Source: Syntrophobacteraceae bacterium
Lineage (GTDB): Bacteria; Desulfobacterota; Syntrophobacteria; Syntrophobacterales; Syntrophobacteraceae
NCBI GenBank assembly: GCA_033812955.1
Contig: JAPXSS010000006.1
Location: forward strand, 1,911-65,910
Direction of reading: 5' to 3'
Length of the DNA: 64,000 bases
Of this stretch, positions 7,073-60,242 are shown in pieces (position 1 is the stretch's first letter; every line of letters starts with the position of its first letter). The notes beneath the pieces are model-generated. The model worked only from the letters and a program-made list of their open reading frames with translations, made no database searches and was not told the origin of the DNA. The position numbers were made by a program, and so were the translations under genes.

Positions 7073-7642
7073 ATGCAGCAGACTGGTTTAAGTCCTGACT
7101 TTAATTTCCTGGAAGAGGTGGAAGCCGCTGGACCGTTTAACGTTTCCGAGTGCTTCCAATGCCGCAAGTGCACCAATGGATGCCCAGCCACATTCGCCAT
7201 GGATCTTTTCCCTGATCAGGTCATTCGCTTGGCGATCCTGGGCTTGAAGGAGGAGGTCCTGCGTTCGAAGACAATTTGGGTGTGCGCCTCCTGCGAAACC
7301 TGTACCACGCGCTGTCCCAACGGCGTGAGGATCGCGGAGGTGATGGATTTCTTTAAGGAAATGGCAGTGATGCAGGGGGCAGCCATCCCACAGCGCCAGA
7401 TCATTACGCTCCACCGGACGTTCCTGGACAACTTCCGAAACACCGGGCGCGTCTTTGAGGGGGGCCTGATGGGAGCCTATATGCTCCGGAGCGGTCAGAT
7501 CGGCAGCATGCTCAAGACGGGAGCGTGGAAGGACCAGCTTCAGTTGGGATGGAAGATGTTCCAAAAGGGTCGTATGCCTCTTTTTCCTACATCCATTGAA
7601 GGAAAGGCTGAGGTCGCTGCCATTCTTCGTAGATCAAAATAG
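7073..7642 (+). CDS. hdrC: heterodisulfide reductase subunit C
   Basis: Two 4Fe-4S motifs (CFQCRKCTNGCP, CASCETCTTRCP). Size and position immediately upstream of hdrB fit HdrC. Confidence 0.85.
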   Translation: MQQTGLSPDFNFLEEVEAAGPFNVSECFQCRKCTNGCPATFAMDLFPDQVIRLAILGLKEEVLRSKTIWVCASCETCTTRCPNGVRIAEVMDFFKEMAVMQGAAIPQRQIITLHRTFLDNFRNTGRVFEGGLMGAYMLRSGQIGSMLKTGAWKDQLQLGWKMFQKGRMPLFPTSIEGKAEVAAILRRSK

Positions 7643-7657
7643 ACAGGGAACTCCATT

Positions 7658-8518
7658 ATGAAGGTCACTTACTACCCGGGTTGTTCTTTGGAAGGTACGG
7701 CTCGCGATTATGCCGACTCTATCCACGGTGTTTGCACTCATTTTGGCATCCAACTGGAGGAAATACCGGATTGGAACTGTTGTGGGTCCACCGCGGCTCA
7801 CTGCATCAATCACAAGGCCAGTATCGAGCTTGGAGCACGCAACCTGAAACTGGCGGCGCGCCGTTCCAATGCTGACATGCTGGTACCCTGCCCGCTCTGC
7901 TACAATCGCTTGAAAACGGCAGCTTGGGCACTCGAGGAAGAGAAGACCCACCAGTACGATATTCAGTTGGATGCTCCCACACCCAAGATCTGGGACCTGG
8001 CAAACTTCTTTGCCACCGACGTGATGCTGGCAAGACTGAGGGAGAACGTCAAGAAGCCCCTCGAGGGCCTCAAGGTGGTTTGCTACTACGGTTGCATGGC
8101 CAGTCGGCCGCCACATATCACCAAAGCCACGGACTACGAGAATCCCCAGAGTATGGACCGGATTGTCAAGGCTCTCGGCGGGAAAGCCCTTCCTTGGCCC
8201 TACAAGACCGACTGCTGCGGGGCGAGCCTCATGCTCTCCCGCCCCGATATGGGGCACAAGCTGGTGGGCAAACTTTATGACATGGCACAGCGGGTGGGTG
8301 CCCAGGCAATCGTGGTCTCATGCCAGATGTGCCAGTCAAACCTCGACATGTATCAGAAGCAGATTGAAGCGGAATGGGGCCGCAGTTTTGCTCCCCCCAT
8401 TCTGTATTTCACGGAATTGATTGGTCTCGCCTGTGGTCTGCCGGCTGTCGAATCGTGGCTCTCACGGCATATCACAGACCCTCGGCCGGTCCTTCGCGAG
8501 GCCAGGCTGGTTGCCTAA
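7658..8518 (+). CDS. hdrB: heterodisulfide reductase subunit B (two CCG domains)
   Basis: YYPGCSL...NCCGS and YYGC...DCCGAS, the duplicated CCG-domain pattern of HdrB. Confidence 0.9.
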   Translation: MKVTYYPGCSLEGTARDYADSIHGVCTHFGIQLEEIPDWNCCGSTAAHCINHKASIELGARNLKLAARRSNADMLVPCPLCYNRLKTAAWALEEEKTHQYDIQLDAPTPKIWDLANFFATDVMLARLRENVKKPLEGLKVVCYYGCMASRPPHITKATDYENPQSMDRIVKALGGKALPWPYKTDCCGASLMLSRPDMGHKLVGKLYDMAQRVGAQAIVVSCQMCQSNLDMYQKQIEAEWGRSFAPPILYFTELIGLACGLPAVESWLSRHITDPRPVLREARLVA

Positions 8519-8556
8519 CGGAATGCATGTCTTTCATAATTTAAGGAAGTAGAAGC

Positions 8557-11500
8557 ATGGCTGGAGCACAGAAGGTTGGTGCAGTAACCGTTATTGGCGG
8601 AGGCATCGGCGGTATCCAGTGCGCCCTGGACATCGCGAACTCCGGTTTCAAGGTTTACCTTGTAGAAGAACAACCCAATATCGGCGGGGTGATGTCACAG
8701 CTTGACAAGACTTTTCCCACCAATGATTGTTCTTCGTGCATGATGGGCCCCAAGCTGGTTGAAATTGCCACGCATCGGAACATCGACATTTTGACACGGA
8801 CCACCGTCGAGAGCATATCCGGCGAACCGGGAGATTTTACCCTCAAGCTCAACCATCATCCTCGCTATATTATGCTGGATAAGTGCACGGGCTGCGGGGA
8901 ATGCGCCAAGGTGTGTCCCATTAACATGCCCGCCGACTTTAATCTGGGCCTAAACGAACGCCAGGCCATCTACCGAAATTATCCCCAGGCGGTCCCGGCG
9001 GGATTCAGCATCGATAAGAAAGACAAATCGCCCTGTACCAATGCCTGCCCGAACAGTGTCAACGCCCATGGGTATGTGGCCCTGATCGCCCAGGGAAAAT
9101 ACGTCGAGGCGATGAAAGTCATCATGCGCAACCTGCCGTTACCGGGTGTCATTGGCAGGATTTGCCCTCATCCCTGTGAGGAAGCCTGCCGCCGCGGTGA
9201 GGTGGACAGTCCGCTTTCCATCTGCGCGCTGAAACGCTTTGTGGCAGACCAGGTGGACATCGAAGAGCTGCCGATTCCCGAGATTGAGAAACGGGACGAG
9301 AAGGTGGCCATCATCGGTTCCGGTCCCGCAGGACTCACGGCCGCCTATTTCCTGGCCCTCGATGGCTATCAGGTCACGATCTTCGAAGCGCTTCCCGTAG
9401 CGGGCGGGATGCTGCGTGTGGGCATCCCCGACTACCGGCTGCCGCCTGAGGTTCTCGAGAAGGAAATCCGTGCCATCACCAGGCTGGGTGTAGACATTAA
9501 ATTCAATACCCGCCTGGGTAAGGATTTCACTATCGATGAGCTGCAGGCTCAGGGATATAAAGCGGTTTATATAGGCATTGGCGCCCATCAGAGCCAGAAG
9601 CTCAATGTTCCCGGCGAAGACGCGGAAGGCGTGATGCACGGGGTGGAGTTCCTGCGTCGTGCCAACCTCCATGAATCCAATCTGGTAAAGGGGAGGGTGA
9701 TCATCGTTGGTGGCGGTGACGTGGCCATTGACGCAGCTCGCGTAGCGACGAGGCTGGGAGCATCGAAGGTGAGCATCTTCTACCGCCGGACTCGCACCGA
9801 AATGCCGGCCCGCGAAAACGAAATCGAAGACGCCCTGGCCGAGGGTGTGGATATCCAGTATCTTACCGCCCCCGCCGAAGTGGTGGTCAAGGACGGCAGG
9901 GTGAGCGGGATGAAATGCATTCGGATGGAGCTTGGAGAGCCCGATACCTCGGGCCGAAGACGTCCGGTACCCATTAGCGGCAGTGAATTCGAGGTCCAGG
10001 CAGAGCTGATCATTCCCGCCATCGGCCAGGCGCCGGATTCGCTGTTCCTGGCGGAGAAGGAAGGTTTGACTTTGACCCGCAAGGGTACTATTGAAGCCGA
10101 TGCCATCACCCTGGCTACCAACAAGGACGGGGTTTTCGCCGGTGGTGATGCACAGACCGGCCCGTGGATCGCTATTGGCGCCGTTGCCCATGGGCGGGAA
10201 GCGGCCATCTCCATCAGTCGCTATCTCAAGGGTGAGGACATCGCGGCCGGGCGGGAGCCGCTGGATTTCCCGCAGGAGGATTTCCGGCCGATTCCGGAAG
10301 AGATCGAGAAGGTCCCTCGGGCTGAGCAGGCTACCATCCCCATGGCCAAACGGAAATCAACCTTTGACGAAGTCGAGCTCGGGTTGACCGAAGAGCAGGC
10401 TAAGGCGGAAGCGCAGAAATGTCTCGACTGTATGGTCTGCTGCGAATGTCTGCAGTGCGTGGATGCGTGTCTTGCCAAGGCGATCAACCACGACATGCAT
10501 CTGGAAGTTGAGGAAATCAAGACGGGCGCTGTCATTTTCGCCCCCGGTTTTAAGCCGTTCGATGCACGGACCAAGCCTGAACTAGGTTATGGTTTGTGGC
10601 CCAATGTGATCACCAGCCTGGAGTACGAGCGCATTCTTTCTGCGGCCGGTCCCTTTGGCGGTCACATCCAGCGCCTCTCGGATGGCAAGAAGCCCCACCG
10701 GATCGCCTGGATTCAGTGCGTGGGCTCACGTGACAGCAGCATCGGCAATGACTACTGCTCCTATGTTTGCTGCATGTACGCCACCAAGCAGGCCATGATC
10801 ACCAAAGAACATGAGGCTGATATCGATACCACCATCTTTTACATCGATATGCGGGCCCAGGGGAAAGGGTTTGACCGCTTCTACGAGAGGGCGCGTGACG
10901 AGACCGGCGTGCGTTTCGTGCGCTCCATGGTCTCTCGAGTGTTGCCGGTACCAGAAACCGACCAGTTGATGGTGACCTATTCGGATGACAAGAGCGTCCT
11001 GCGTGAGGAAGTGTTTGACATGGTGGTGCTCTCCATCGGTCTTTGTGCTCATCCGTCAACAGGGGAACTGGCGAAAACCCTGGGGGTGGGGCTCAATTCG
11101 TTCGGTTTCTGCTCGAGCGATACCATGGATCAGGTGGCGACGTCGAAGCCCGGCATTTACGTCTGCGGTGTCTCTCAAGGACCCAAAGACATTCCCGATA
11201 CCGTCCAGCAAAGCAGCAGTGCCGCTGCCTGTGCCACCGCCCTCCTTGCCGAGGCCCGAGGAACGATGATCACCCCGCCGCCGGTTTATGAGGAGCGGGA
11301 CATCACGGGGGAAAAGCCACGGATCGGCGTTTTCGTCTGCCATTGCGGCATCAACATTGCCGGAGTGGTGGATGTGGAAGCTGTGGTCCAGTATGCCATG
11401 ACCCTGCCGGGAGTGGAGTATGCCACCCGCGCCATGTTCACTTGCTCCACTGACAATCAGAAGGAAATCAAGCGGCTGATCGATGAACATCGGCTCAACC

Positions 11501-12984
11501 GGGTCATTGTAGCGTCGTGTACACCTCGTACCCATGAACCGCTCTTCCGCAGTACCCTGCGGGAAGCGGGGTTGAATGCCTATTTGTTCGACTTGGCCAA
11601 CATCCGGGAACAGGATTCCTGGGTCCATATGTCGGAACCGGAGGCGGCAACGAACAAGGCCAAGGACCTCGTCCGCATGTCGGTGGCTCGCGCCGCTTTG
11701 TTGGAGCCGTTGAGCGACTATACCTACGAAGTCGTACAGCGGGGACTGGTGATTGGCGGTGGCTTGACTGGGCTCACTGCAGCCCTCTCCATTGCGGAAC
11801 AGGGGTTCCCTGCCGTTCTGGTGGAACGTAGTGCGGAACTTGGAGGGAATTCCAAGACCCTTTACTATACCGACGAGGGATCGACGCCTTCCAAGTATGT
11901 ACAGGACCTGATCAAGCAGGTGGAAGCTAATGCGCTCATTACAATCCATAAAGAAGCCGAGGTGAGCGCCATTACCGGAAGCTGCGGCAATTTCACGAGT
12001 ACGATTACCCACAATGGCAACACCGAGGAGCTGAATCACGGGGTGGTGATCGTGGCGACCGGTGGCCAGGAATACAAGCCGACGGAGTACCTCTACGGGC
12101 AACACCCGCAGGTGATGACGCAGCATGAGTTTGAAGCGCTACTGCAAAACGAGCCTGCACGAGCCGCGAAGTACCAACGGGTCGTCATGATTCAGTGCGT
12201 GGGGTCCCGGGAACCGGATAATTCCTACTGTAGTCGCGTCTGTTGTACGGCTGCCATGAAGAACAGCCTGAAGCTCAAGGCTCTGAACCCCAAGGCGCAG
12301 ATATCGGTGCTCTATCGCGACATCCGCACCTTCGGCTTCAAGGAACTCACTTATCAGGAGGCCCGGCAGAAAGGGGTCCGGTTCTTCCGCTTCGAATATG
12401 AAAACAAGCCTAAAGTCGAAGCCATTGGTGAGCGTTTGCAGGTGACGGTGGCCGATGCTCAGCTTAACCGCCCGTTTCGTCTGGATGCCGATCTGCTCGT
12501 TTTGAGCGCTGCCATTCGGCCGCGGGAGGAGGGGAAGAAGCTGGGCGAGACGCTGCGCGTACCGTTCGATCAGGATGGGTTCTTCCTGGAGGCGCATTTG
12601 AAACTGCGCCCTCTGGATTTTCCGACCGCAGGCTATTTTGTCTGCGGTCTGGCAAAGGGCCCCTCCTTTGCCAACGAAGCTATTGCGCAGGCGAAGGGCG
12701 CGGTTTCCCGGGCACTTGCCATTCTGTCCAAGAAGGAAATCGTCAAAGAAGGCATGATGACCCAGATCAATCCCGAGCTCTGTCGTGCTTGTGGGGAATG
12801 TGAGCAGACTTGTCTTTTCAACGCAGTGAAAGTAACGGATATGCCCGACGGCCGCCGCCAGGCCATGGTCGACCTGGCGCTCTGTACCGGCTGTGGCGCC
12901 TGCAATGTAGCTTGCCCCACCGGCGCAGCATCGCTGGCTCATTTCCGCGACACGCAGGTGAATGCAGAGATTCGGGCCCTATAG
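8557..12984 (+). CDS. hdrL: large HdrA-type fusion protein (HdrL-like): HdrA-like FAD domain interrupted by a GltD/NfnB-like NAD(P)H oxidoreductase module, followed by a second HdrA-like unit
   Basis: N-terminus VIGGGIGGIQCALD...[18 protein letters not shown] (Cys at 8737-8739). GltD-like insert around 9028-10230 (ICPHPCEEACRRG, VAIIGSGPAGLTAAYFLA, IIVGGGDVAIDAAR, VFAGGDA). Then [21 protein letters not shown], a second GGGLTGL FAD site and a second IQCVGSRE, with C-terminal 2x CxxCxxCxxxCP. Confidence 0.85.
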   Translation: MAGAQKVGAVTVIGGGIGGIQCALDIANSGFKVYLVEEQPNIGGVMSQLDKTFPTNDCSSCMMGPKLVEIATHRNIDILTRTTVESISGEPGDFTLKLNHHPRYIMLDKCTGCGECAKVCPINMPADFNLGLNERQAIYRNYPQAVPAGFSIDKKDKSPCTNACPNSVNAHGYVALIAQGKYVEAMKVIMRNLPLPGVIGRICPHPCEEACRRGEVDSPLSICALKRFVADQVDIEELPIPEIEKRDEKVAIIGSGPAGLTAAYFLALDGYQVTIFEALPVAGGMLRVGIPDYRLPPEVLEKEIRAITRLGVDIKFNTRLGKDFTIDELQAQGYKAVYIGIGAHQSQKLNVPGEDAEGVMHGVEFLRRANLHESNLVKGRVIIVGGGDVAIDAARVATRLGASKVSIFYRRTRTEMPARENEIEDALAEGVDIQYLTAPAEVVVKDGRVSGMKCIRMELGEPDTSGRRRPVPISGSEFEVQAELIIPAIGQAPDSLFLAEKEGLTLTRKGTIEADAITLATNKDGVFAGGDAQTGPWIAIGAVAHGREAAISISRYLKGEDIAAGREPLDFPQEDFRPIPEEIEKVPRAEQATIPMAKRKSTFDEVELGLTEEQAKAEAQKCLDCMVCCECLQCVDACLAKAINHDMHLEVEEIKTGAVIFAPGFKPFDARTKPELGYGLWPNVITSLEYERILSAAGPFGGHIQRLSDGKKPHRIAWIQCVGSRDSSIGNDYCSYVCCMYATKQAMITKEHEADIDTTIFYIDMRAQGKGFDRFYERARDETGVRFVRSMVSRVLPVPETDQLMVTYSDDKSVLREEVFDMVVLSIGLCAHPSTGELAKTLGVGLNSFGFCSSDTMDQVATSKPGIYVCGVSQGPKDIPDTVQQSSSAAACATALLAEARGTMITPPPVYEERDITGEKPRIGVFVCHCGINIAGVVDVEAVVQYAMTLPGVEYATRAMFTCSTDNQKEIKRLIDEHRLNRVIVASCTPRTHEPLFRSTLREAGLNAYLFDLANIREQDSWVHMSEPEAATNKAKDLVRMSVARAALLEPLSDYTYEVVQRGLVIGGGLTGLTAALSIAEQGFPAVLVERSAELGGNSKTLYYTDEGSTPSKYVQDLIKQVEANALITIHKEAEVSAITGSCGNFTSTITHNGNTEELNHGVVIVATGGQEYKPTEYLYGQHPQVMTQHEFEALLQNEPARAAKYQRVVMIQCVGSREPDNSYCSRVCCTAAMKNSLKLKALNPKAQISVLYRDIRTFGFKELTYQEARQKGVRFFRFEYENKPKVEAIGERLQVTVADAQLNRPFRLDADLLVLSAAIRPREEGKKLGETLRVPFDQDGFFLEAHLKLRPLDFPTAGYFVCGLAKGPSFANEAIAQAKGAVSRALAILSKKEIVKEGMMTQINPELCRACGECEQTCLFNAVKVTDMPDGRRQAMVDLALCTGCGACNVACPTGAASLAHFRDTQVNAEIRAL

Positions 12985-13041
12985 CAGGTGATGTTTGGAT
13001 TGAGGCTGTTTGCCCTGAGCTGATAACCGAGAGGAATGTCA

Positions 13042-13482
13042 ATGGCTGAAACATTCGAACCCAAAATTGTAGCCTTCGTGTGTAACTGGTGCGCCTATGC
13101 CGGCGCCGATCTGGCTGGGGTGGGTCGCATGCAGTACCCCACCAACGTGCGTCTCATCCGTTTGATGTGCACGGGCAGAATCAATCATGCCTTCCTGCTG
13201 AACGCTTACCAGGCAGGAGTGGACGGAGTCATGGTATCCGGGTGACACATCGGGGACTGCAATTACCTGGGAGGTAATGAAAAGTGTCTGAAGGTGGTTG
13301 AGGATACCCATAAAGTCCTCCGGCTGTTGGGTGTGGACGAACGGTATCTTTTTCTGAAATGGGTTTCAGCTTCGGAAGGGCCGATTTTTGCCGAGACGAT
13401 TCGAAATTACACCGAACTGTTGAAGCAACTGGGTAGAAATCCGCTGGCCGAGGCGCATAGCAGTGTCGCGAGTGCGGCCTGA
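13042..13482 (+). CDS. mvhD: MvhD-like [2Fe-2S] electron-transfer protein, selenoprotein (1 in-frame UGA at 13243-13245)
   Basis: Track ORFs 13036..13245 and 13294..13482 share one frame, separated only by TGA. Joined: [26 protein letters not shown]...[21 protein letters not shown]... The UGA sits where MvhD has the Cys of GCHxGxCHY. RBS AGAGGA lies before ATG 13042. Confidence 0.85.
13244..13288 (+). promoter_or_regulatory. putative bacterial SECIS hairpin for mvhD copy 1
   Basis: Core stem ATTACC(13262-13267)/GGTAAT(13273-13278), loop TGGGA. Outer pairing GACAC(13244-13248)/GTGTC(13284-13288). Confidence 0.5.
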
Positions 13483-13536
13483 CCGGGCTGTACGCAGACG
13501 GCTGCCGACGATTCCTCATAAACCGAATATGCCCTG

Positions 13537-14676
13537 ATGGAAGAGGCTATGATGATCAGTCTGGAACAAATCAGTTATTGCATGGAGTGTGGGGTCTGCA
13601 CGGGAAGTTGCCCCATCAGCAGATCGTTGACCTCTTTTTCGCCACGCCAGATGATAAAACGCTCGTTGATGGACCATGACGAGACGGTGGTGCAGGGGCG
13701 GGAGCTCTGGGCCTGCCTGACCTGCGCGCGCTGCAGCACCCGCTGTCCGGCGCAGATCGACTTCCCGGAGTTTGCCAGGGCCCACCGCGAACTGGCGCGC
13801 AAGGGAGGGAACCTGCCCCAGTTGAGCCATCACGGAACACTTCAGGCGATCGCAGCACTGCAAACCGCTAACATCAAGCAGCAGCGGACCGATTGGGCGA
13901 CCGAGGCGGGGACCTTCAAGGACAAGGGGGATGTTTTCTGTTTTGTTGGCTGCGCCCCGTACTTCGAAGCCGTCCTGAAGCCGGGTGAGGGTTCCCTGGA
14001 AGTGCCCAAAGCGGTTCTAGGGATACTCAACCGCATGGGCATCGAACCGGCCATCAGCAACGATGAGCGCTGCTGCGGGCATGATGCTCTGTGGAGCGGA
14101 GACGAGGCCACGTTCAAGCAGCTGGCGGCCATGAACCTCGAAGTCATCCGCGGCTCCGGGGCGAAGACGGTGCTGTTCAGTTGTCCCGAAGGCTATACCA
14201 CCTTCAAAAACCAGATCCCCAAGTACTTTGGCGATCTGCCCTTTGAGGTCCTTCACGTGACCGAATTCTTCGCCCGTGAGTTGCCTGCCTCCGGCGTGAA
14301 ATTCTCCCCCTGTACCAACAACGGGAAAGGCGGGGTGACGTATCAAGACCCGTGCCGGCTGGGTCGCGTGGCCGGGATCTACGAGGCGCCGCGGGAGCTG
14401 ATTCGGCTTGTTCCCGACGCCAGGTTCGAAGAAATGCCGCGCAACCGCGAAAATGCTCTTTGCTGCGGTACCAGTGCCTGGATGGAATGCTCCAACTGTT
14501 CTAAATCCATCCAGATCGAGAGGCTGCAGGAAGCGCGTGACGCCGGAGCCCACACGCTCATTACGAGCTGTCCCAAATGCCGCATCCATCTGAGTTGCGG
14601 TCAGCAGAACACTGATTTGACCGACCTGGAAGTGGTCGATCTCTTCGCTTTTCTTCTACAGCACATTGAATCGTGA
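13537..14676 (+). CDS. HdrC/HdrB fusion-type Fe-S oxidoreductase (2x[4Fe-4S] plus two CCG domains; HdrD/GlpC-like)
   Basis: CMECGVCTGSCP and CLTCARCSTRCP, then FVGCAPYF...CCGHD and YQDPCRLGR...CCGTS. The start could instead be ATG 13549 or 13552. Confidence 0.75.
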   Translation: MEEAMMISLEQISYCMECGVCTGSCPISRSLTSFSPRQMIKRSLMDHDETVVQGRELWACLTCARCSTRCPAQIDFPEFARAHRELARKGGNLPQLSHHGTLQAIAALQTANIKQQRTDWATEAGTFKDKGDVFCFVGCAPYFEAVLKPGEGSLEVPKAVLGILNRMGIEPAISNDERCCGHDALWSGDEATFKQLAAMNLEVIRGSGAKTVLFSCPEGYTTFKNQIPKYFGDLPFEVLHVTEFFARELPASGVKFSPCTNNGKGGVTYQDPCRLGRVAGIYEAPRELIRLVPDARFEEMPRNRENALCCGTSAWMECSNCSKSIQIERLQEARDAGAHTLITSCPKCRIHLSCGQQNTDLTDLEVVDLFAFLLQHIES

Positions 14677-14687
14677 CCAATGGAGGT

Positions 14688-16404: not shown

Positions 16405-16418
16405 AGGAGAACATGTCA

Positions 16419-21064: not shown

Positions 21065-21129
21065 CATTGAAGGGGCAATGCCCCTGAGGCAGGGGGGGTT
21101 AGGAGTTAACCGGACCTGAGTAAAGAAGC

Positions 21130-21164
21130 GGGGGTAGTTCTCAGCGAGCTACCCCCCTGGTTTT
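21130..21164 (+). terminator. rho-independent terminator-like hairpin after mvhA
   Basis: GGGGGTAG(21130-21137)/CTACCCCC(21149-21156), 11-nt loop, followed by CTGGTTTT. Confidence 0.5.
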
Positions 21165-21188
21165 CCGGGAAAGAGCTTTAGCGGGGGT

Positions 21189-21821
21189 TCAGCTTATCAC
21201 CCACACCGCGATGTCCTGCGCCACCTGCGTGAGCTTGGCGGCAATTCGCCCGATCTGGAATTCTTCAACCTCGGATACGCCGCGCCGACCCACGACAATG
21301 GTCCCGTAGCGGCCGTTGCGGGCTTCATTGAGAAGGGCCGTTGACCGGCTGACCACTCCCGAGATCACCTTGGTGTTGATTTTGGCTGGATCGGCTCCCA
21401 TGGCGGTCAAGGATTTGGAGAGTTTTTCGAACATCGGCTAGATCGCGTCCTGAGCATCATCCTGGAGCTTCTGGAGGATGTAAGTCTCGTCTTCCTGTGG
21501 AAATCTAACCACATGAGCCGGCGTTACCTGCGGTTCACCCTTGCCCAACATCCTGCCGACGAAATTCGCGGCCCGCATGGATCCCCAGGAATTGTCCACA
21601 CTCGCAAGGATTTTGCCTCCCTTCGATTTTCCGCCTACCAGATAAACCGTCGGGCCAACCACATTCAACCGTACCTTGCTAGCAATGCTGTCATGAATGG
21701 TATCATCCGCGGCCCCGATGCCCCTACGTCCCATGGCCACAAGGTCGCAGCCGAACCGGCACTCTTCGAGGATGTCTCTGGCAAAGCCGTTCTTGCGCTT
21801 TTGAATGAGGATTATCAGTTT
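21189..21821 (-). pseudogene. remnant of a tandem universal stress protein (UspA family) gene: 5' truncated, with an in-frame TAG
   Basis: Track ORFs 21438..21740 and 21189..21434 share one frame, split by TAG (21440-21438). Together they give one Usp domain (...GRYGTIVVGRRGVSEVEEFQIGRIAAKL...). The frame upstream reads ...ARDILEECRFGCDLVAMGRRGIG (C-terminus of another Usp domain) but hits a stop at 21824-21822 with no start codon. Confidence 0.5.
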
Positions 21822-21890
21822 CTAATATATGCTTCAACAGACATACAGCGTGATTAGCCGTGATTGTCCTCAAAATCAGGCAAAGAATTG

Positions 21891-21919
21891 TTGATATCCA
21901 CAAAAAAATGAAGTATATT
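21891..21919 (+). promoter_or_regulatory. candidate sigma70-type promoter facing hdrA copy 2
   Basis: TTGATA(21891-21896)-N17-TATATT(21914-21919) in the less GC-rich spacer. It would give a ~430-nt leader. Confidence 0.3.
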
Positions 21920-22359: not shown

Positions 22360-23889
22360 GTGAATCGCGACGTGTTAGTGATTGGGGGAGGAATTGCGGG
22401 CATGCAAGCCTCTCTGGACCTGGGTGAAATGGGATTCCAGGTGCATCTGGTGGAGCGATTGCCAAGCATTGGCGGCAAGATGTCGCAGCTTGACAAAACG
22501 TTTCCCACCAATGATTGCGCCCTTTGAATCCTGGCGCCGAAGCTGATGGATGTCGGTCGACATCCCAAGATCCGGTTGCTGGCCTACTCAGAGATTGAAA
22601 AAATTGACGGTGAAATAGGGAATTTTCACATCACGGTTCGCAAAAAAGCCCGTTATGTCGATGAAAAGAAATGCACGGGTTGCGGGACGTGTGCGGAAAA
22701 GTGTCCGACGGTAACTTCCGACGTCTACAACCTCGGGCTTGGCAAAGCCAAGGCCATCTATAAGTACTTTGCCCAAGGGATTCCGTCCGCCTATACCATC
22801 GACGCCAATGCGTGCCGACAACTCCAGGGGAAGAAGTGCGGTGTTTGCGCCAAGGTCTGTCAGGCCGGCGCCATCGACTACAAGCAGCAGGAGCAGATCA
22901 TCGAGTTCGAGGTGGGGGCCATCATTGTGGCCACCGGTTATGATCTCTTCGATGCTACGAAAATCCCGGAATATGGTTACGGGCGACTGCCCAACGTGGT
23001 CACCGCCCTGGAATTCGAACGGTTCCTCTCCGCCAGCGGCCCCACGCATGGTCACGTCTATCGCCGTTCGGACCTGGCCCTGATGGATGCTCTGCCCGAG
23101 GCGGAAAAGAGCCAGCAGAAAGCGGCCAGGGGCCTTGAACAGTTGGAGAAGAAAGGCGGGATGAGTTCCGCCGATTTCTATGCCAAGTATGAGGCTGGTG
23201 AACTGCAAGGCGAAGAGTACGATAAGTGGGCCGAGCAGGTTAAGGTTTCCCGCGCCGCCATGGAAAAGCTCGAGACCATGAAGGCGAAAGTCAACCAGAT
23301 CGAGGGCGCGCATCGGCTGGCCTTCATCCAGTGCGTGGGGTCCCGCGACATTCGCTTCAATAAGTACTGTTCAGGCTTTTGCTGCATGCATGCCGTCAAA
23401 GAGGCCATCATTGGCCTGGAACACGACAGGGACGCCGAAGTCTACATATTCGGCATGGATATCCGCGCGGTCGGAAAGAACTTCGAGGAGTACCGCAATC
23501 GTGGTGCCGGTTCCGGGATCCAGTTCATCAGGAGCCGGGTGGCCGAAATTTACGAGGACAAAGATCACACTCCCATCCTCGTTTATGAGGACACCAAAGA
23601 GCGGCTGGTGAAGCAAATGCCGGTGGACCTGGTGATTCTGGCCACCGCTTGCCAGCCCAGTGAAGGGATAGTCAAAATGGCGGCCACGGTGGGTATCGAA
23701 ACCAACGATTTCGGCTTCATCAAGACCGCCTCTTACCCGCCGCTCAGCACCTCGCGGCCGGGAGTCTTCGTCTGCGGCTGTGCGGTAAGTCCCATGGATA
23801 TTCCTGAATCGGTTGCTCAGGCCAGCAGTGCCGCGGCCAGAGCAGCTCAGGTTCTGTCAGGTTCTGAGACCGAACGTCTCGCCTCCTGA
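22360..23889 (+). CDS. hdrA: HdrA-like FAD/Fe-S flavoprotein, selenoprotein (UGA at 22525-22527), copy 2
   Basis: Own translation from GTG 22360 (RBS AAGGAGA): [68 protein letters not shown]..., in frame with track ORF 22546..23889. Same geometry as copy 1 (Sec at codon 56). Confidence 0.85.
22548..22565 (+). promoter_or_regulatory. putative SECIS hairpin for hdrA copy 2
   Basis: Identical GGATGTCGGTCGACATCC element at the same offset as in copy 1. Confidence 0.4.
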
Positions 23890-23903
23890 AGGAGAACAAG
23901 TCA

Positions 23904-25622
23904 ATGAGTGGTGATACGGAGAAGACAGCAGAGTTCAACACCAAGGATGCACGGATCGGCGTTTTTGTCTGTCATTGCGGTTCCAATATTGCGGGCCTCC
24001 TGGACTGCCCGGCCTTGACCGAATATGCATCCGGGCTGCCCAACGTGGTTTTTACCAAGAATAATCTCTACACCTGTTCCGAAGCGGGCATTGCCGAGAT
24101 CATGAACGCCATTAAGGACCATGGGCTCACCCGCGTCGTGGTGGCCTCCTGCTCGCCGCGCACCCATATGCCGCTCTTCAAGAGCGCGTGCGCCGAGGCG
24201 GGGCTCAATCAGTACCTGTTCGAAATGGCCAACATTCGGGATCAGTGCTCCTGGGTTCACGCGCAGGATCAAGAATTGGCCCAGATCAAAGCCATGGACT
24301 TGATCCGGATGGCGGTGGCCAAAGCCAGGTTCCTGGAACCGGCTGAGGACATCGAGTCCTCCCTGGTGCGCCGTGCCATGGTCATTGGTGGCGGGGTGGC
24401 CGGGCTGTCGGCGGCCGGCGCTCTGGCGGACATGGGGATGGAAGTGATCCTGGTGGAAAAGCAGGCAGAACTCGGCGGCCTGCTGCGTCGGATCAATCGC
24501 ATTGGCCCGGGCGGCGAAAAGGCTTCCGAGCTGCTGGGTATGCTGGTGGCGGACTTTAAGTCCAAGCCAAGGGCCAAGGCGCTGCTGGAGAGTGAAGTGT
24601 CGGCAGTGAGTGGGGTGGTTGGCAATTACGAGGTGACCATTCGCGACAAAAGTGGTGAGATGCAGACGGAAACGGTGGGCTGCATTGTCGTTGCCACCGG
24701 AGCGCTGCCGTTCACTCCCGAAGGACTGTACGGGTACAACGGAAAGAATGTGATCACCCAGATTGAACTGGAAGAGAAGCTTCGGGACGGCACCCTCGAC
24801 GCCAAACGGGTGGTCATGATCCAGTGCGTTGGTGCCAGATCGCCTGAGCGGACCTATTGTTCGCGGATCTGCTGCCAGACGGCTATCAAGAACGCTCTCT
24901 ACATCAAAGAGCTCAATCCCGAGGCTCATGTCCATATCCTCTATCGTGACATCCAGATGTACGGCACCGACAACGAACGGATGCTGTGGGACTCACGCGG
25001 CAAGGGCGTTCATTACGATGTTTACGATGTTGAGCGGCCGCCGGTGGTGAAGGACGGGGTGGTTGAGGTTTATCAGCCGCTGCTGGGTGAGGTGGGGCAG
25101 ATTCTTTTCGATCTGCTGGTGCTCTCGACTCCCCTGGTGGCCCCTGCAGATGCGCAGGACGTTGCCAACCTGATGCGCATTCCCGTGGACCAAAATCGTT
25201 TCTACCTGGAGGCCCATGCCAAACTGCGGCCGTTAGATTTTGCCACCGACGGGGTCTTCCTGTGCGGGACAGCACGCTATCCGGCAACCGTAGGGGAAGC
25301 CCAGGCCCAGGGGCTGGGGGCGGCGTCGCGGGCTGCGACCGTGCTGTTCAAAGACAAGCTGGTAGCCAGCGCCTTGATCTCTCAGGTGACGGAGCGTTGC
25401 GACGGCTGTGGTGCCTGTGTCGAGCTCTGCCCTTACCATGCGCTCAGTCTCGAGGAGTACGAACAAGACGGACGGAAACTCAAGCGCAACAAGGTCGACA
25501 AAATGTTATGCAAGGGGTGCGGAGTGTGCGCCGCCACCTGTCCCAAAGGGGGCGTGGTGGTCTGTGGATTCACTCGCACGCAGCTCCAGGCCCAAGTGGA
25601 TGCAGCGCTCGAAGCGGCTTAG
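23904..25622 (+). CDS. second HdrA-like subunit, copy 2
   Basis: Collinear paralogue of 16419..18140 (VFVCHCGSNIAG, VIGGGVAGLSA, MIQCVGARS, CDGCGACVELCP, CKGCGVCAATCP). RBS AAGGAGA lies 8 nt upstream. Confidence 0.8.
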   Translation: MSGDTEKTAEFNTKDARIGVFVCHCGSNIAGLLDCPALTEYASGLPNVVFTKNNLYTCSEAGIAEIMNAIKDHGLTRVVVASCSPRTHMPLFKSACAEAGLNQYLFEMANIRDQCSWVHAQDQELAQIKAMDLIRMAVAKARFLEPAEDIESSLVRRAMVIGGGVAGLSAAGALADMGMEVILVEKQAELGGLLRRINRIGPGGEKASELLGMLVADFKSKPRAKALLESEVSAVSGVVGNYEVTIRDKSGEMQTETVGCIVVATGALPFTPEGLYGYNGKNVITQIELEEKLRDGTLDAKRVVMIQCVGARSPERTYCSRICCQTAIKNALYIKELNPEAHVHILYRDIQMYGTDNERMLWDSRGKGVHYDVYDVERPPVVKDGVVEVYQPLLGEVGQILFDLLVLSTPLVAPADAQDVANLMRIPVDQNRFYLEAHAKLRPLDFATDGVFLCGTARYPATVGEAQAQGLGAASRAATVLFKDKLVASALISQVTERCDGCGACVELCPYHALSLEEYEQDGRKLKRNKVDKMLCKGCGVCAATCPKGGVVVCGFTRTQLQAQVDAALEAA

Positions 25623-25802
25623 AGTTTGGCAGGGTGTTGAAAAATCTTCCCCAACGTCTCCCCGGCGAAACCCGGAGTACAGAAAACCATGCGGAACCTG
25701 GATGTCGGTTTTCACCGGCATGACGGACAGAGCCTTCGATGCACTTTTTCAACAGCCTGCTAGAGGAGTACTCACAAACAGGTAAGAAAGGAGTTTTCCC
25801 CC

Positions 25803-26222
25803 ATGTCCGATGAGTATGTTCCCACCATTGTTGGATTCCTCTGCACGTGGTGAGCGTACGCCGCTGCTGACCTGGCTGGGGTCAGTCGTTCGCAGTACCC
25901 TCCCAATCTGCGTATCGTCCGGATGATGTGCTCCGGGATGGTCAGTCCCGACCTGGTGGTACGCGCCCTGTCCAAAGGTGCCGACGGCGTGCTGGTGCTG
26001 GGATGCCACCTGGGTGAGTGTCACTACATGGAAGGCAATTTCAACGCGGCCAAGCGGATGGCGGTAATCAAGAATCTGCTCGCCTTTACCGGGATCGACC
26101 CGGCGCGGCTCAGGGTGGAATGGGTATCGTCCGCCGAAGCGCCCAAACTGGTCGAGATTGTTATCGACTTCACCAACCAGATCAAAGATCTCGGACCCTC
26201 CCCGTTGAAGGCTGTGGCCTGA
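25803..26222 (+). CDS. mvhD: MvhD-like protein, selenoprotein (one UGA at 25851-25853; Cys at the second site)
   Basis: Own translation from ATG 25803: MSDEYVPTIVGFLCTW-U-AYAAADLAGVSRSQYPPNLRIVRMMCSG...GVLVLGCHLGECHYMEGN..., in frame with track ORF 25923..26222. Confidence 0.85.
25854..25893 (+). promoter_or_regulatory. putative SECIS hairpin for mvhD copy 3
   Basis: CTGACC(25867-25872)/GGTCAG(25880-25885), loop TGGCTGG. Outer GCGTACG/CGTTCGC with one mismatch. Homologous to the 18251-18290 element. Confidence 0.45.
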
Positions 26223-26256
26223 TGGAGACTGACATTGATCGGGCTGTCAAGGATCA

Positions 26257-27081
26257 ATGAGAAAGGCTCTTTTTATGGTTGAAAAGATCAAAGCAAGAGT
26301 TCAGGAACTGTTGGCGTCCGGCAAGATCAAAGGTTTCCTCGGTCTCCGCGAAAGGTACGGCCACGTCGGCCCTTACCTTTTTACCGATCCCAATGACCTC
26401 GACGGAATGTCCGTCGGCGATGGGGCAAAACCCGGCGATACCCGCTATTCGCTCAACAAACAACTCATCAGGCTGGTCCATTCTTATCAGGACGACGCTT
26501 TCGGCGTGTTGGTGCGCGGCTGCGATGAGCGCGGGCTGAAAACCCTGATTGCCTCCAACCAGCTCGACCCGGCACGGGTGGTTTCCGTCGGTTTGGCCTG
26601 CCCCCAGGAACTGGCCGATGCCTGCGAGTGTATGAAGCCCTTTCCCGATGAGTACGTTGCGGGTGAGCCATCCGAAGGGCGGCCTTTTGCCGGAGTGGCT
26701 CAGATCGAGGCCATGGCCATGGAGGAGCGTTTCAAGGTCTGGCTGGCCGAGTTCGCCAAATGCGTCAAGTGCTATGGCTGTCGCGATGTCTGTCCGATGT
26801 GCTACTGCAAGGAATGCACCCTGGGAGGCAAGGATTTTGTGAACGTCGGCACCCTGCCGCCGCAAAATCCCATCTTCCACATCACCCGCGCGCTCCACAT
26901 GGCAGGAAGATGCATCGACTGTGGGCTGTGTAATGAAACCTGCCCTGCGGATATCCCACTACGAACGCTCTACAAGAAGATCGCAGACCTTGTTGACCAG
27001 GAGTACCAGTATCGGCCGGGCTATGGCGAACCCAAGGCCAGCCTGACCATTCACGGCCTCGGTGATTCCCCACAACACTGA
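26257..27081 (+). CDS. 2x[4Fe-4S] Fe-S protein, putative electron-transfer partner of the formate dehydrogenase
   Basis: CVKCYGCRDVCPMC and CIDCGLCNETCP ferredoxin-type motifs in the C-terminal half. The N-terminal half was not recognised. The role is inferred only from its position between mvhD and fdhA. Confidence 0.5.
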   Translation: MRKALFMVEKIKARVQELLASGKIKGFLGLRERYGHVGPYLFTDPNDLDGMSVGDGAKPGDTRYSLNKQLIRLVHSYQDDAFGVLVRGCDERGLKTLIASNQLDPARVVSVGLACPQELADACECMKPFPDEYVAGEPSEGRPFAGVAQIEAMAMEERFKVWLAEFAKCVKCYGCRDVCPMCYCKECTLGGKDFVNVGTLPPQNPIFHITRALHMAGRCIDCGLCNETCPADIPLRTLYKKIADLVDQEYQYRPGYGEPKASLTIHGLGDSPQH

Positions 27082-27094
27082 GAGGAGCATTGGT

Positions 27095-29131
27095 ATGAAT
27101 TACCGGAATGTACTGACCACGTGCACCTACTGCGGCTGCGGGTGCACTCTCTATCTCGAGGTTTTGGGCGGCCACCTGGTGAACACGATTCCCTGCAAGA
27201 CCAGCAATCTCAACGAAGGCAAGCTTTGTGTCAAAGGCTGGAACGTCCACGAATTCGTTGAGAGCTCGAATCGCCTGACTCAGCCGTTGCTGCGTAAAGA
27301 TGGCAAGCTGGCCCCGGTTTCCTGGGATGAGGCGCTGGATTTTATTGCCAAACGGCTGAAGGAAATCAAAGAGGCCAACGGCCCTGATAGCATTGCCTTT
27401 CTGGCCTCGGCCAAGGTGACCAACGAGGAAAACTACCTCATCCAGAAGTTCGCGCGAGCGGCAGTGGGAACCAACAATGTCGACCACTGCGCCCGTCTCT
27501 GACACTCCTCGACGGTGGCAGGACTTGCTGCCTCGTTTGGGAGTGGGGCGATGACCAACTCTATCGCCGAAATCGAAAACGCCGATTGCATCATCGTGAT
27601 TGGTTCCAATACCCCATCGAATCACCCGCTGGTCGCAACCCGTATTTACCGCGCCCAGGCAAAGGGGGCGAAACTGGTGGTGGTAGACCCCCGCAAGGTT
27701 CCCTTGGCAAAGAACGCCACCCTGTATGTGCAGCACAAGCTTGGTACTGATGTGGCGCTGATCAACGGGATCATGAACGTCATCCTCACTAACGGCTGGC
27801 ACAACGAGGCCTTCATCAAGGAGCGGACCGAGGGCTTCGAGGAACTCCGCAAGGTGGTCGAACAGTATCCACCGGAGCGTGCGGCGGAGATCACCGGGGT
27901 TTCGGCCGATGACATTCGCACCATCGCCGAATGGTACGCTAAGGCCAAGGCCAGCTCCATTGTCTATTGCATGGGCATCACCCAGCACACGACCGGGGTG
28001 GACAACGTCAAATCCCTGGCCAACCTGGCCATGCTGACCGGCAACATCGGCCGGGAATCGACGGGCGTCAACCCGCTGCGCGGCCAGAACAACGTGCAGG
28101 GGGCCTGCGATATGGGTGGGCTGCCCAACGTCTATCCCGCCTACCAGCCGGTGAACAACCCGGATATTCAGAAGAAGTTCGAAGCCGCCTGGCATGCCAA
28201 ACTCTCCGATAAGATCGGGCTCACTATTCCAGGGGTCCTCGAAGGCTTGTCCGCGGGTATGGTGAAGGCGGTCTACATCGTCGGCGAGAATCCCATGGTG
28301 AGCGACCCTGACGTAAACCACGTGGAAAAGGCCCTGCGCGAAGCGGAGCTGCTGGTGGTCCAGGACATCTTCCTCACCCCGACGGCCGAACTGGCGCATG
28401 TGGTGCTACCCGGCGCCTCCTTTGCCGAAAAGGACGGCACCTTCAGCAACACCGAACGGCGCGTTCAGCGGGTGCGCAAAGCGATTGAACCCATCGGAGA
28501 GTCGCGGGCGGACTGGGAGATCCTCCAGGATCTCTCCACCCGCTTCGGCTACCCCATGAAATACGAGTCCCCGGCCGAAATCATGGCAGAGGTAGCTACG
28601 GTCGCCCCATCCTACGGGGGCATCAGCTACGACCGGCTCGAGGGTGAAGGTCTCTTCTGGCCCTGCGTCAACAAGGACCATCCGGGTACGAGAGTCCTCC
28701 ACCAGGGCAAATTCTCGCGTGGCTTGGGGCTCTTTCATGCAATCGATTTCAAGCCGCCGGCGGAACAGATCGATACCGAATATCCCTTCTGGCTCACCAC
28801 CGGGCGGGTTCACGTGCATTACCATACCGGCACCATGACCCGCAACTCCCCTTCCCTTCATGCGGAAATGCCCGAGGGTTTCCTCGAAATCAACCCGCAG
28901 GATGCCAAAGCACTTGGGGTGAGAGCGGGGGATAGGGTGAAGGTGAGTTCCCGGCGTGGGGAAATGGTGACGCGGGTGGACTGCACCAAGCGGGTAACTC
29001 CCGGAATGGTCTTCATGCCGTTCCATTTTGTAGAAACGTGCGCCAACATCCTGACCAACCCGGCCAATGATCCCATTGCCAAGATTCCCGAGTACAAGGT
29101 GTGCGCGGTGAAGCTGGAAAAGGCGGCATGA
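27095..29131 (+). CDS. fdhA: formate dehydrogenase catalytic subunit (molybdo/tungstopterin), selenoprotein (UGA at 27500-27502)
   Basis: MNYRNVLTTCTYCGCGC (N-terminal 4Fe-4S). Track ORFs 27062..27502 and 27515..29131 share one frame; joined they read NVDHCARL-U-HSSTVAGL, the canonical FdhA/FdhF Sec active-site motif. RBS GAGAGGAG lies before ATG 27095. Confidence 0.9.
27504..27544 (+). promoter_or_regulatory. putative SECIS hairpin for fdhA
   Basis: ACTCC(27504-27508)/GGAGT(27540-27544) outer stem. GGCAG(27517-27521)/CTGCC(27528-27532) apical stem, 6-nt loop GACTTG. Begins directly after the UGA, as in fdhF-type SECIS. Confidence 0.55.
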
Positions 29132-60240: not shown

Positions 60241-60242
60241 GG

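Follow-up and report, generated by a model that had tools for sequence, protein, structure and literature searches.

A conserved cluster of heterodisulfide reductase-like genes with NAD(P)(H)-, H2- and formate-linked modules in a Syntrophobacteraceae bacterium

How electrons from H2, formate and NAD(P)H might be connected to heterodisulfide reductase (Hdr)-like proteins in a bacterium is the question raised by a gene cluster of a Syntrophobacteraceae bacterium, located at positions 7073-29131 of a 64,000-nucleotide (nt) stretch of contig JAPXSS010000006.1. This whole stretch is called the window in the following, and all positions without a locus number refer to it. In sulfate reducers and syntrophs, Hdr-like proteins rank with the most abundant redox proteins of the cytoplasm and yet with the least understood, and to our knowledge bacteria do not possess CoM-S-S-CoB. 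The cluster is a compact target in this respect, as it joins NAD(P)(H)-, H2- and formate-linked HdrA units with both types of CCG disulfide reductase.

We consider it fairly probable that this cluster, which is conserved in a Syntrophobacteraceae-related clade, encodes modular cytoplasmic complexes that bifurcate or confurcate electrons and share HdrBC and HdrCB as ends. The evidence comprises the family membership of the genes, the distribution of the HdrA domains over two complementary proteins, an own MvhD for each HdrA-type unit, and the conservation of the layout in related genomes.

Gene content and domain architecture

Genes were called from an open reading frame (ORF) listing and three-frame translation, and families were assigned with Pfam and NCBIfam. 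The cluster consists of 15 genes, all on the plus strand, in the order hdrC, hdrB, hdrL, mvhD, hdrCB (part 1), hdrA1-hdrA2-mvhD-mvhG-mvhA (part 2) and hdrA1-hdrA2-mvhD-fdhB-like-fdhA (part 3). A preliminary description of the locus, made from the sequence alone, had given this order and had named homology outside the HdrA, MvhD, MvhAG and FdhA families as an argument against it. Each of the 15 genes was found in the family named there, with the proteins in question inside these four, and all three HdrA-type units have an own MvhD, as had been stated. Gene identities and architecture are secure. The genes are as follows (aa, amino acids; Sec, selenocysteine):

7073..7642, plus strand: hdrC-like 4Fe-4S dicluster subunit, 189 aa (Pfam Fer4_8/Fer4_17)
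7658..8518, plus strand: hdrB-like subunit, 286 aa (Pfam CCG, two stretches)
8557..12984, plus strand: hdrL, 1475 aa (Pfam Pyr_redox_2, Fer4_20, FAD_oxidored; NCBIfam HdrA2, 943 bits)
13036..13482, plus strand: mvhD1, 148 aa, Sec at aa 70 (TGA 13243-13245; Pfam FlpD, 151 bits)
13537..14676, plus strand: hdrCB fusion (HdrD-like), 379 aa (Pfam Fer4_8 and CCG, two stretches)
14872..16404, plus strand: hdrA1a, 510 aa, GTG start, Sec at aa 56 (TGA 15037-15039; NCBIfam HdrA)
16389..18140, plus strand: hdrA2a, 583 aa (PDB HdrA matches; NCBIfam HdrA)
18200..18631, plus strand: mvhD2, 143 aa, Sec at aa 17 and 68 (TGA 18248 and 18401; FlpD, 173 bits)
18677..19603, plus strand: mvhG, [NiFe]-hydrogenase small subunit, 308 aa (Pfam Oxidored_q6; NCBIfam VhuG, 207 bits)
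19619..21064, plus strand: mvhA, [NiFeSe] large subunit, 481 aa, Sec at aa 450 (TGA 20966; Pfam NiFeSe_Hases)
22360..23889, plus strand: hdrA1b, 509 aa, GTG start, Sec at aa 56 (TGA 22525; HdrA matches)
23904..25622, plus strand: hdrA2b, 572 aa (HdrA matches)
25803..26222, plus strand: mvhD3, 139 aa, Sec at aa 17 (TGA 25851; Pfam FlpD, 179 bits)
26257..27081, plus strand: shortened fdhB-like iron-sulfur subunit, 274 aa (phmmer and profile match to FdhB structures)
27095..29131, plus strand: fdhA, cytoplasmic molybdenum/tungsten (Mo/W)-bis-PGD formate dehydrogenase alpha subunit, 678 aa (TIGR01591, 886 bits)

The motifs of the HdrA superfamily, GxGxxG and CxG[SA]R...CxxxCC, are present in HdrA1a/b, HdrA2a/b and both halves of HdrL, and HdrA structures in the PDB were matched with E values of 2e-125 to 8e-94. 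The full domain set of a canonical single-chain HdrA is found only in HdrA1 and HdrA2 taken together, and the NCBIfam HdrA scores lie below the equivalog cut-offs. HdrA1a aligns to residues 146-374 and 379-571 of methanogen HdrA (5ODC_A), which represent its FAD domain and inserted ferredoxin domain; counterparts of the terminal domains of the methanogen protein, N- as well as C-terminal, are missing. HdrA2a begins with a CxCGxNI domain, continues with a FAD domain that has no inserted ferredoxin domain and ends with a 2x[4Fe-4S] domain; its aa 24-257 match 8rvu_a 10-243 and its aa 268-580 match positions 315-636 of the NCBIfam HdrA model. A motif scan confirmed that HdrA2 lacks the TNDCxxC/U motif (Cys/Sec pair) as well as the inserted ferredoxin domain. 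Judged from these alignments, HdrA1 and HdrA2 are complementary and together hold one copy of each module, whereas the methanogen homodimer holds two.

HdrA1a additionally contains a Glu/Lys/Ala-rich insert of 79 aa (aa 239-317, window 15586-15822), which is found at the same place in HdrA1b. This insert occurs in Desulfobacterota HdrA1 proteins and is absent from methanogen HdrA (between residues 374 and 379 of 5ODC_A), from HdrL and from the archaeal homologues in L065 and L079 (numbers with L designate related loci). It could be a docking arm.

HdrL is a fused pair: according to blastp onto HdrA1a and HdrA2a, aa 21-164 and 630-885 are HdrA1-like and aa 915-1474 HdrA2-like. It has Cys and not Sec in its TNDCSSC motif. 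The insert in between (approximately aa 165-629) is a GltD/NfnB-type FAD/NAD(P)H module with a Fer4_20 domain; aa 154-646 match PRK12771 with 565 bits, above the cut-off of 516 bits, and there are further matches to the GltD family. The embedded GltD/NfnB-like module of the preliminary description was thus confirmed within HdrA sequence. With an HdrA-type part, a glutamate-synthase-small-subunit-type module and mvhD1 51 nt downstream, the protein belongs to HdrL in the sense of Strittmatter et al. (2009).

As the NfnB-like module interrupts the inserted ferredoxin domain of the HdrA1-like half, the NAD(P)(H) site would lie on the branch that canonical HdrA uses for ferredoxin and not at the position fed by MvhD. 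All three donor modules proposed earlier are therefore present, but they are not equivalent inputs, as H2 and formate would enter via MvhD. HdrL orthologues without the insert (approximately aa 156-629) were observed in L005 (4236-7262), L016 (2785-5796), L022, L040 and L057. These are plain fused double-HdrA proteins, so that the NAD(P)H module must have been gained or lost while the rest of the cluster was conserved.

MvhA shows the motifs RICGIC (aa 60-65; RxCGxC) and DPUISCATH (aa 448-456; DPUxSCxxH) and matches VhuA with 447 bits and VhuU with 46 bits. Homologues of MvhG are annotated as F420-non-reducing or methyl-viologen-reducing hydrogenase. VhuA, VhuU and VhuG are the best NCBIfam matches of the two proteins, yet their scores lie below the equivalog cut-offs. 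Judged from the motifs, the VhuG type of the small subunit and the order mvhD-mvhG-mvhA, the enzyme belongs to the group 3c [NiFe(Se)] hydrogenases (Mvh/Vhu).

FdhA is an alpha subunit according to its TIGR01591 score (cut-off 666 bits) and its matches to Pfam Molybdopterin, Molydop_binding and Molybdop_Fe4S4; its Sec136 (TGA 27500) lies in the sequence ARLUHSS. No twin-arginine translocation (Tat) signal was found in the sequences of MvhG and FdhA, which indicates that the Mvh and Fdh modules are cytoplasmic.

The protein encoded upstream of fdhA had been listed simply as FeS. It is an iron-sulfur protein, but appears to be a shortened FdhB rather than a generic one. A single-sequence phmmer search matched 9t1s_M with an E value of 1e-28, and a profile of 20 orthologues matched the FdhB chains of Fdh-Hdr structures (9t1s_M with 3e-39, 8rvu_E, 7bkb_E) in the range of 3e-39 to 2e-31. 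Profile positions 76-129 correspond to FdhB 85-140 and positions 128-260 to FdhB 242-376, with about 100 central residues missing; the homology thus covers a short stretch near the N-terminus and, clearly, the cluster domain at the C-terminus. The protein gave no match to Pfam FrhB_FdhB_N or FrhB_FdhB_C and is probably a shortened derivative without F420 site.

The candidate disulfide reductases are distant homologues of HdrB and HdrC. HdrB contains two complete CCG motifs in a motif scan (CCG at aa 41 and 186, CxxC at aa 78 and 222), with SdhE as best NCBIfam match. For HdrC, the N-terminal part of QmoC scored best (74 bits), followed by HdrC TIGR03290 (67 bits). All these scores, for SdhE and HdrB as well as for QmoC and HdrC, are below the equivalog cut-offs. 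HdrCB has an N-terminal dicluster domain and two CCG domains, of which the first terminates in CPEG and not in CxxC, and matches HdrC chains in the PDB (5odc_C and others).

Selenocysteine codons, duplicated blocks and transcription units

Eight in-frame TGA codons were found, located at aa 56 of HdrA1a and HdrA1b, aa 70 of MvhD1, aa 17 and 68 of MvhD2, aa 17 of MvhD3, aa 450 of MvhA and aa 136 of FdhA. Four of them had already been called as Sec codons, and those calls hold; the four in the mvhD genes had been missed. At the Sec positions, the homologues in 80 related loci have either a stop codon or Cys, barring a few poorly aligned matches; the stop codons of the homologues were taken as TGA, as the subject codons were not read. 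A hairpin begins at most about 20 nt after each of the eight TGA codons. Because of the alternation of stop codon and Cys and because of these hairpins, we regard the TGA codons as real Sec codons and not as errors; an in-frame UGA at a Cys position together with a downstream hairpin is what characterizes bacterial selenoprotein genes. The positions also coincide with known Sec sites, namely residue 197 of HdrA, the DPUxSCxxH motif of the hydrogenase and the U-H of FdhA. Sec56 of HdrA1 aligns with residue 197 of 5ODC_A, and in a recent Hdr-Vhu-Fwd structure the Cys/Sec at this residue sits between FAD and cluster A3 (PMC13518236).

All three MvhD paralogues, which match FlpD (PF02662) with 151-179 bits, are selenoproteins with two alternative Cys/Sec positions, and only MvhD2 has Sec at both. 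Across the related loci both positions alternate, independently of each other, between stop codon and Cys, one site showing 103 stop codons versus 40 Cys and the other 59 versus 84. A search of the whole window with Rfam at the gathering threshold gave no match, and hence neither a SECIS (selenocysteine insertion sequence) model nor a riboswitch, and no tRNA genes (including tRNA-Sec) and no selABCD genes were found within the 64 kb.

Two segments of 3.3 kb, 14839-18150 and 22327-25630, are paralogous with a nucleotide identity of 81.5%, which is patchy and ranges from 63% to 97% in 150-nt windows. The identity of the encoded proteins falls from 90.6% for HdrA1a/b over 78% for HdrA2a/b to 66% for MvhD2/3, which fits a common core with donor-specific adaptors. 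HdrA1a resembles its paralogue (90.6%) more than the L084 orthologue (88%), whereas for MvhD2 as well as for MvhD3 the identity to the donor-matched orthologues of L001 and L009 (73-77%) exceeds the identity between the two paralogues. This indicates that the duplication is old, that gene conversion still acts on the core and that the adaptors have diverged in a donor-specific way, and the identity pattern indicates that the formate block and the H2 block have been homogenized in patches by gene conversion. A homogenized HdrA1 core with MvhD adaptors that diverged along with their donors is a testable prediction for interface mapping.

From hdrC to mvhA the genes are spaced by 15-59 nt, except for a 16-nt overlap of hdrA1a and hdrA2a and 195 nt in front of hdrA1a; the spacer between hdrCB and hdrA1 comprises 35-40 nt in L001, L005 and L009. 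Parts 2 and 3 are separated by a gap of 1.3 kb (21065-22359) containing three elements:

21130..21166, plus strand: intrinsic-terminator-like hairpin (21130-21156) after mvhA, with a T-rich tail, CTGGTTTTCC, to 21166
21189..21830, minus strand: Usp pseudogene (Pfam Usp, 4.8e-11; translation)
21891..21919, plus strand: sigma-70-like promoter, TTGATA-17-TATATT, about 440 nt upstream of hdrA1b

The hairpin has an 11-bp stem with 7 G-C pairs; it is the top-listed site in 6300-26000 and the one with the most G-C pairs. The Usp pseudogene is 5'-truncated and contains an in-frame TAG at 21438-21440. An intact Usp orthologue (tandem Usp, 310 aa) is present on the opposite strand at the same position in L084 and L086, and the Usp region of the window is about 770 nt shorter than that of L084. 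The promoter-like site, identified by consensus match only, agrees at 10 of 12 positions, the best value in the region; L084 has kept the site and its leader, L086 has not. Conservation in the window, L084 and L086 alike is limited to about 45 nt in front of the hdrA1b start, and these are also common to hdrA1a. The approximately 34 nt directly upstream of both hdrA1 GTG starts (14839-14872 and 22327-22360) are conserved as GGATGRTTTGAAACCCARAAGGAGACCCTAYTCGTG, which includes the ribosome-binding site.

Terminator, opposite-strand Usp pseudogene and promoter-like site suggest that part 3 is a separate transcription unit, and at least two units are predicted, one from hdrC to mvhA and one from hdrA1b to fdhA. 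The three-donor arrangement, previously called co-linear, is therefore not co-linear in the operon sense. Two plus-strand ORFs within the gap (21513-21857 and 21934-22308) were rejected as genes, as they lack the high third-position G+C of the cluster and tblastx gave no match for the gap in related loci; 21934-22305, the one scanned, had no Pfam match. A permissive Rfam search of 21065-22400 returned only a chance snoRNA match (E = 0.33) and no known leader RNA.

The flanks of the cluster hold almost exclusively housekeeping or unrelated genes, namely those for der GTPase, ispH-ubiA, a glycosyltransferase, a cupin, a DUF6600 protein, mannose-1-phosphate guanylyltransferase, amidohydrolases, polyamine metabolism, miaA, mutL and a malic enzyme-PTA fusion. 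The ispH-ubiA pair appears as a fusion of IspH/LytB and a UbiA-type prenyltransferase in one ORF of 579 aa (2252-3991). An ORF on the minus strand at 6637-7038 was dismissed as a gene, as it had no family match. The sole thiol-related genes elsewhere in the window, encoding a cyclic nucleotide monophosphate (cNMP)-binding/rhodanese fusion adjoining a redoxin/AhpC-like thiol protein (59317-60917, minus strand), lie more than 30 kb from the cluster.

Conservation and possible modes of action

Related loci were collected by scanning HdrA2a against one genome per species, which gave more than 578 matches; all 15 window proteins were mapped onto the best 80 loci, and MvhG served as bait for further contigs with close relatives (including L081-L090). 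A protein 100% identical to MvhG occurs in the Logan contigs L081-L083, while a look-up of the exact HdrCB sequence gave no match. The 80 loci belong mostly to Desulfobacterota and in some cases to Bathyarchaeia and Promethearchaeia. As they were picked by similarity to HdrA2a, the following co-occurrence counts are biased. In the window and in about 80 related loci, MvhD follows every HdrA-type unit. Downstream of hdrA1-hdrA2-mvhD, an FdhB-like protein together with FdhA is encoded in 25 loci, the FdhB-like protein only in 16 and MvhG(A) in 4, and in 23 loci another HdrL/NfnB-like gene takes the place of Fdh or Mvh. Upstream sequence of at least 7 kb is available for 48 loci; 41 of them have a gene for HdrL or a double HdrA plus MvhD there, and 39 have hdrCB.

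L084 (GCA_032942435.1; 88-93% nucleotide identity) and L086 (84-87.5%) have the same layout as the window, so that the three parts including the intervening Usp gene are kept in three genomes differing by 7-16% in nucleotide sequence. In L009, a metagenome-assembled genome (MAG) of Syntrophobacter, all three donors occur in another order: HdrL-MvhD-HdrCB-HdrA1-HdrA2-MvhD-FdhB'-FdhA is followed by HdrA2-MvhD-MvhG-MvhA without a second hdrA1. The Mvh module begins only 446 nt after fdhA (L009 9554-10001), and one HdrA1 would serve two HdrA2-MvhD-donor sets. An Mvh module without own hdrA1 implies that the modules have components in common. L001 and L004/L087 contain parts 1 and 2 only, with part 3 not found within 7 kb downstream of mvhA in L001. 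L005 and L016 contain parts 1 and 3 with an HdrL lacking the NfnB insert, and this combination of an HdrL-type unit with a formate module is common across Desulfobacterota.

The synteny comparison suggested in the preliminary description thus confirmed that the three-part layout is conserved, but showed the three-donor arrangement, regarded there as notable, not to be unique. What is widespread in Desulfobacterota is a core of two units, HdrL or double HdrA-MvhD-HdrCB followed by HdrA1-HdrA2-MvhD plus donor.

In Desulfobacterota at a greater distance, among them Desulfoferrobacter suflitae and a Desulfamplus MAG (L088, L089 and L090, approximately 3200-12400 each), there is a stand-alone cluster hycI-double HdrA-mvhD-FrhB/FdhB-like-mvhG-mvhA with a double HdrA of 943-1024 aa and a full-length FrhB/FdhB-like protein of 372 aa. 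In the window there is neither a hycI-type maturation protease gene near mvhA nor an FrhB-like gene in the Mvh module.

The mode of action that we favor starts from three pseudo-dimeric HdrA cores, each with an HdrA1-type and an HdrA2-type half, which form a single chain in HdrL and separate proteins in the remaining two cores. The HdrA1 half would contribute its FAD domain, the Cys-x3-Cys/Sec pair (equivalent of residue 197) and the inserted ferredoxin domain, and the HdrA2 half the N-terminal cluster domain, its FAD domain and the C-terminal ferredoxin domain. The [NiFeSe] site of MvhA would oxidize H2, or the Sec-Mo/W site of FdhA would oxidize formate, and by way of MvhG or the shortened FdhB the electrons would reach the cognate MvhD with its [2Fe-2S] cluster and then the FAD of the HdrA1/HdrA2 pair. 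If bifurcation takes place there, one electron would leave through the inserted ferredoxin domain of HdrA1 to ferredoxin, and the other, high-potential electron would be passed to HdrCB and/or HdrBC, the CCG-type disulfide reductase that the units for H2 and formate would need in common. HdrL would add an NfnB-like NAD(P)(H) port on the ferredoxin branch. MvhAG with MvhD2, or FdhA/FdhB' with MvhD3, would thus act as donor cartridges feeding an asymmetric HdrA1/HdrA2 flavin core. In a syntroph the machinery would probably also run in reverse and form H2 or formate by confurcation. The wiring through MvhD proposed earlier by analogy with methanogens agrees with the placement of the H2 and formate modules, which is that of methanogen MvhAG and FdhAB, and is strengthened by the homology of the FdhB-like subunit to the FdhB that contacts MvhD in 7bkb, 8rvu and 9t1s. 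For the disulfide partner of HdrCB/HdrBC, the literature on sulfate reducers makes DsrC the leading candidate.

Several points weigh against this scheme. Besides scoring below the cut-offs, HdrB and HdrC have SdhE and QmoC as best NCBIfam matches and not methanogen HdrB/HdrC. Flank searches found no dsrC and no other candidate substrate gene in the 64-kb window, and the transcription unit of part 3 has no HdrBC-type gene. Split HdrA1/HdrA2 heterodimers are not known to bifurcate electrons, and as neither the Cys/Sec pair nor the inserted ferredoxin domain is present in HdrA2, perhaps only one of the two flavins is catalytic. MvhD1, finally, has no obvious donor partner and is left unexplained by a simple picture of three inputs.

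This last point is accommodated by the main rival explanation, which we nevertheless consider unlikely: HdrL-MvhD1 and the HdrA1/HdrA2-MvhD-donor units, joined by HdrCB and/or MvhD1, would form one super-complex. With two flavin cores in series, it would link oxidation of H2 or formate to reduction of NAD(P)+ and ferredoxin, or the reverse, and its CCG proteins would be internal electron relays or redox switches and not reductases of a free disulfide. The position of the NfnB-like module on the ferredoxin branch of HdrL, where NAD(P)(H) could be acceptor and not input, and the further HdrL/NfnB-like gene that replaces Fdh or Mvh behind the split unit in 23 loci are in line with this idea. The same is true for the co-occurrence of HdrL or double HdrA plus MvhD with the split unit in 41 of 48 loci, usually with hdrCB between or beside them, which suggests that fused and split units may be partners and not alternatives. 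However, synteny alone does not prove physical association, and the figure is biased by the choice of loci mentioned above. Moreover, the layout is unchanged in L005, L016 and many other loci whose HdrL lacks the NfnB insert, so that NAD(P)(H) cannot be a universal partner, and the distant stand-alone hycI-double HdrA-mvhD-FrhB-like-mvhGA cluster contains no second unit.

The pairing of a fused with a split unit is conserved across Desulfobacterota and occurs also in some archaeal MAGs (Bathyarchaeia, Promethearchaeia). A more specific form of the super-complex, in which such a pair with HdrCB in between makes up a single assembly of two asymmetric flavin cores in series bridged by MvhD1, appears still more doubtful to us. 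If true, a single machine would couple H2 or formate to NAD(P)(H), to ferredoxin and to a protein disulfide, and donor cartridges that can be exchanged would have arisen in the clade of the window through duplication of the split unit.

We give equally little credence to the view that the three parts encode separate enzymes which are adjacent only through duplication and rearrangement, with the Fdh unit working without HdrBC-type partner, e.g., as ferredoxin-linked CO2 reductase/formate dehydrogenase in syntrophic formate or C1 metabolism. The isolation of part 3 by terminator, opposite-strand Usp pseudogene and own promoter-like site would fit, as would the occurrence of parts 1 and 2 without part 3 (L001, L004/L087), of parts 1 and 3 without part 2 (L005, L016 and many others), and of stand-alone Mvh-double HdrA clusters without HdrBC. 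On the other hand, mere neighbors would hardly keep the layout, with Usp in between, across the three genomes described above; the patchy gene conversion that holds HdrA1a and HdrA1b at 90.6% identity suggests a common constraint, and in L009 a single hdrA1 is common to the Fdh and Mvh modules.

That pseudogenes or assembly errors lie behind the interrupted frames and an assembly chimera behind the duplication, as eight in-frame stops and a 3.3-kb repeat could in principle reflect, is excluded, because every stop is a TGA at a stop/Cys position followed by a hairpin, the positions are known Sec sites, the repeat copies are just 81.5% identical, and the region 16631-22728 recurs with 100% identity in the separately assembled contigs L081-L083 and the layout in L084 and L086.

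Comparison with known systems

The closest structural models are the methanogen complexes MvhAGD-HdrABC (5ODC) and Vhu-Hdr of Methanococcus (8RVU), for which the window encodes homologous MvhA (of [NiFeSe] type and representing a fusion of VhuA and VhuU), MvhG, MvhD, HdrA, HdrC and HdrB. The order mvhD-mvhG-mvhA is common to both, as are Sec residues in the hydrogenase and at residue 197 of HdrA. Methanogen VhuD has two Sec residues, as has MvhD2 of the window. The window differs by the division of HdrA into HdrA1 and HdrA2 in place of a homodimer, by the 79-aa insert of HdrA1, by the distant HdrB and HdrC, by the additional CB fusion and by the lack of a hydrogenase maturation protease gene beside mvhA. 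As in the methanogen FdhAB-MvhD-HdrABC(-Fmd/Fwd) complexes (7BKB, 8RVU/8RVV, 9T1S), a Sec-containing FdhA, an FdhB-type protein, MvhD and HdrA are found together, but the FdhB-like protein has 274 aa compared to 380-414 aa for methanogen FdhB, the missing central residues being those of the FrhB-type flavin/F420 part. In methanogens, MvhAG/Vhu and FdhAB compete for one MvhD/HdrABC core (PMC6085437, PMC13518236), and a structure from 2026 describes exchangeable Vhu/Fdh input modules (PMC13518236). In contrast to this single common core, each donor of the window has its own MvhD and HdrA pair.

Class II benzoyl-CoA reductase contains BamDEF, an HdrD-like CCG protein followed by a double HdrA-like and an MvhD-like selenoprotein in the order D-E-F. 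We take this order to resemble hdrCB-hdrA1/hdrA2-mvhD of the window. Membership of the cluster in a class II benzoyl-CoA reductase (BamBCDEFGHI) was rejected, as no genes for BamB (tungsten aldehyde:ferredoxin-oxidoreductase type), BamC and BamGHI were present in the cluster or its flanks; the window's donors are a hydrogenase and a formate dehydrogenase.

Among sulfate reducers and syntrophs, Desulfovibrio vulgaris FlxABCD-HdrABC combines an HdrABC-type module with an NAD(P)H-oxidizing flavoprotein, for which bifurcation to ferredoxin and DsrC has been proposed (Ramos et al., 2015, and Ferreira et al., 2023, as cited in PMC5947623 and PMC10553843); its NAD(P)H module consists of separate Flx subunits and no Mvh or Fdh is part of the system, whereas in the window an NfnB-like module is inserted within HdrA. 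Syntrophobacter fumaroxidans, which appears to be related to the source of the window, possesses a cluster with HdrABC, an FdhB-like FeS protein, MvhD and HdrL. During sulfate reduction, HdrABC/HdrL of this organism (Sfum_0819-0824) are present in high abundance, and a role in confurcation and a connection with DsrC were proposed for them (PMC5947623; Sedano-Nunez et al., 2018). That cluster has another gene order and no catalytic FdhA or MvhA; the window has two extra split-HdrA units with catalytic donors.

The modules of the window were largely anticipated by the genome of Desulfobacterium autotrophicum HRM2 (PMC2702500; Strittmatter et al., 2009). HdrL was described there as a fusion of HdrA and glutamate synthase followed by MvhD, HdrA is encoded by two genes, MvhD-FdhB-FdhA follow HdrA, an HdrCB-type HdrD and a tandem hdrL/hdrA locus are present, and Sec occurs in HdrA, HdrL, MvhD and FdhA. 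Bacterial FdhA proteins of the type found in D. autotrophicum had already been listed as putatively bifurcating (PMC6085437). By comparison of the descriptions only, the HRM2 loci are spread over nine sites, whereas the HdrL, Mvh and Fdh units adjoin here, and HdrL has Cys in the window and Sec in HRM2. In the open-access text, we found no paper describing the exact three-unit layout. As the same layout occurs in public genomes and the modules have been known since 2009, the distinctiveness originally claimed for the cluster shrinks. All modules and most pairings were described from genomes between 2009 and 2018, and current views are not overturned. The cluster is a good but unsurprising candidate for studies of electron bifurcation that could help to settle whether split HdrA1/HdrA2 proteins bifurcate, whether donors are exchangeable, and what the bacterial 'heterodisulfide' is.

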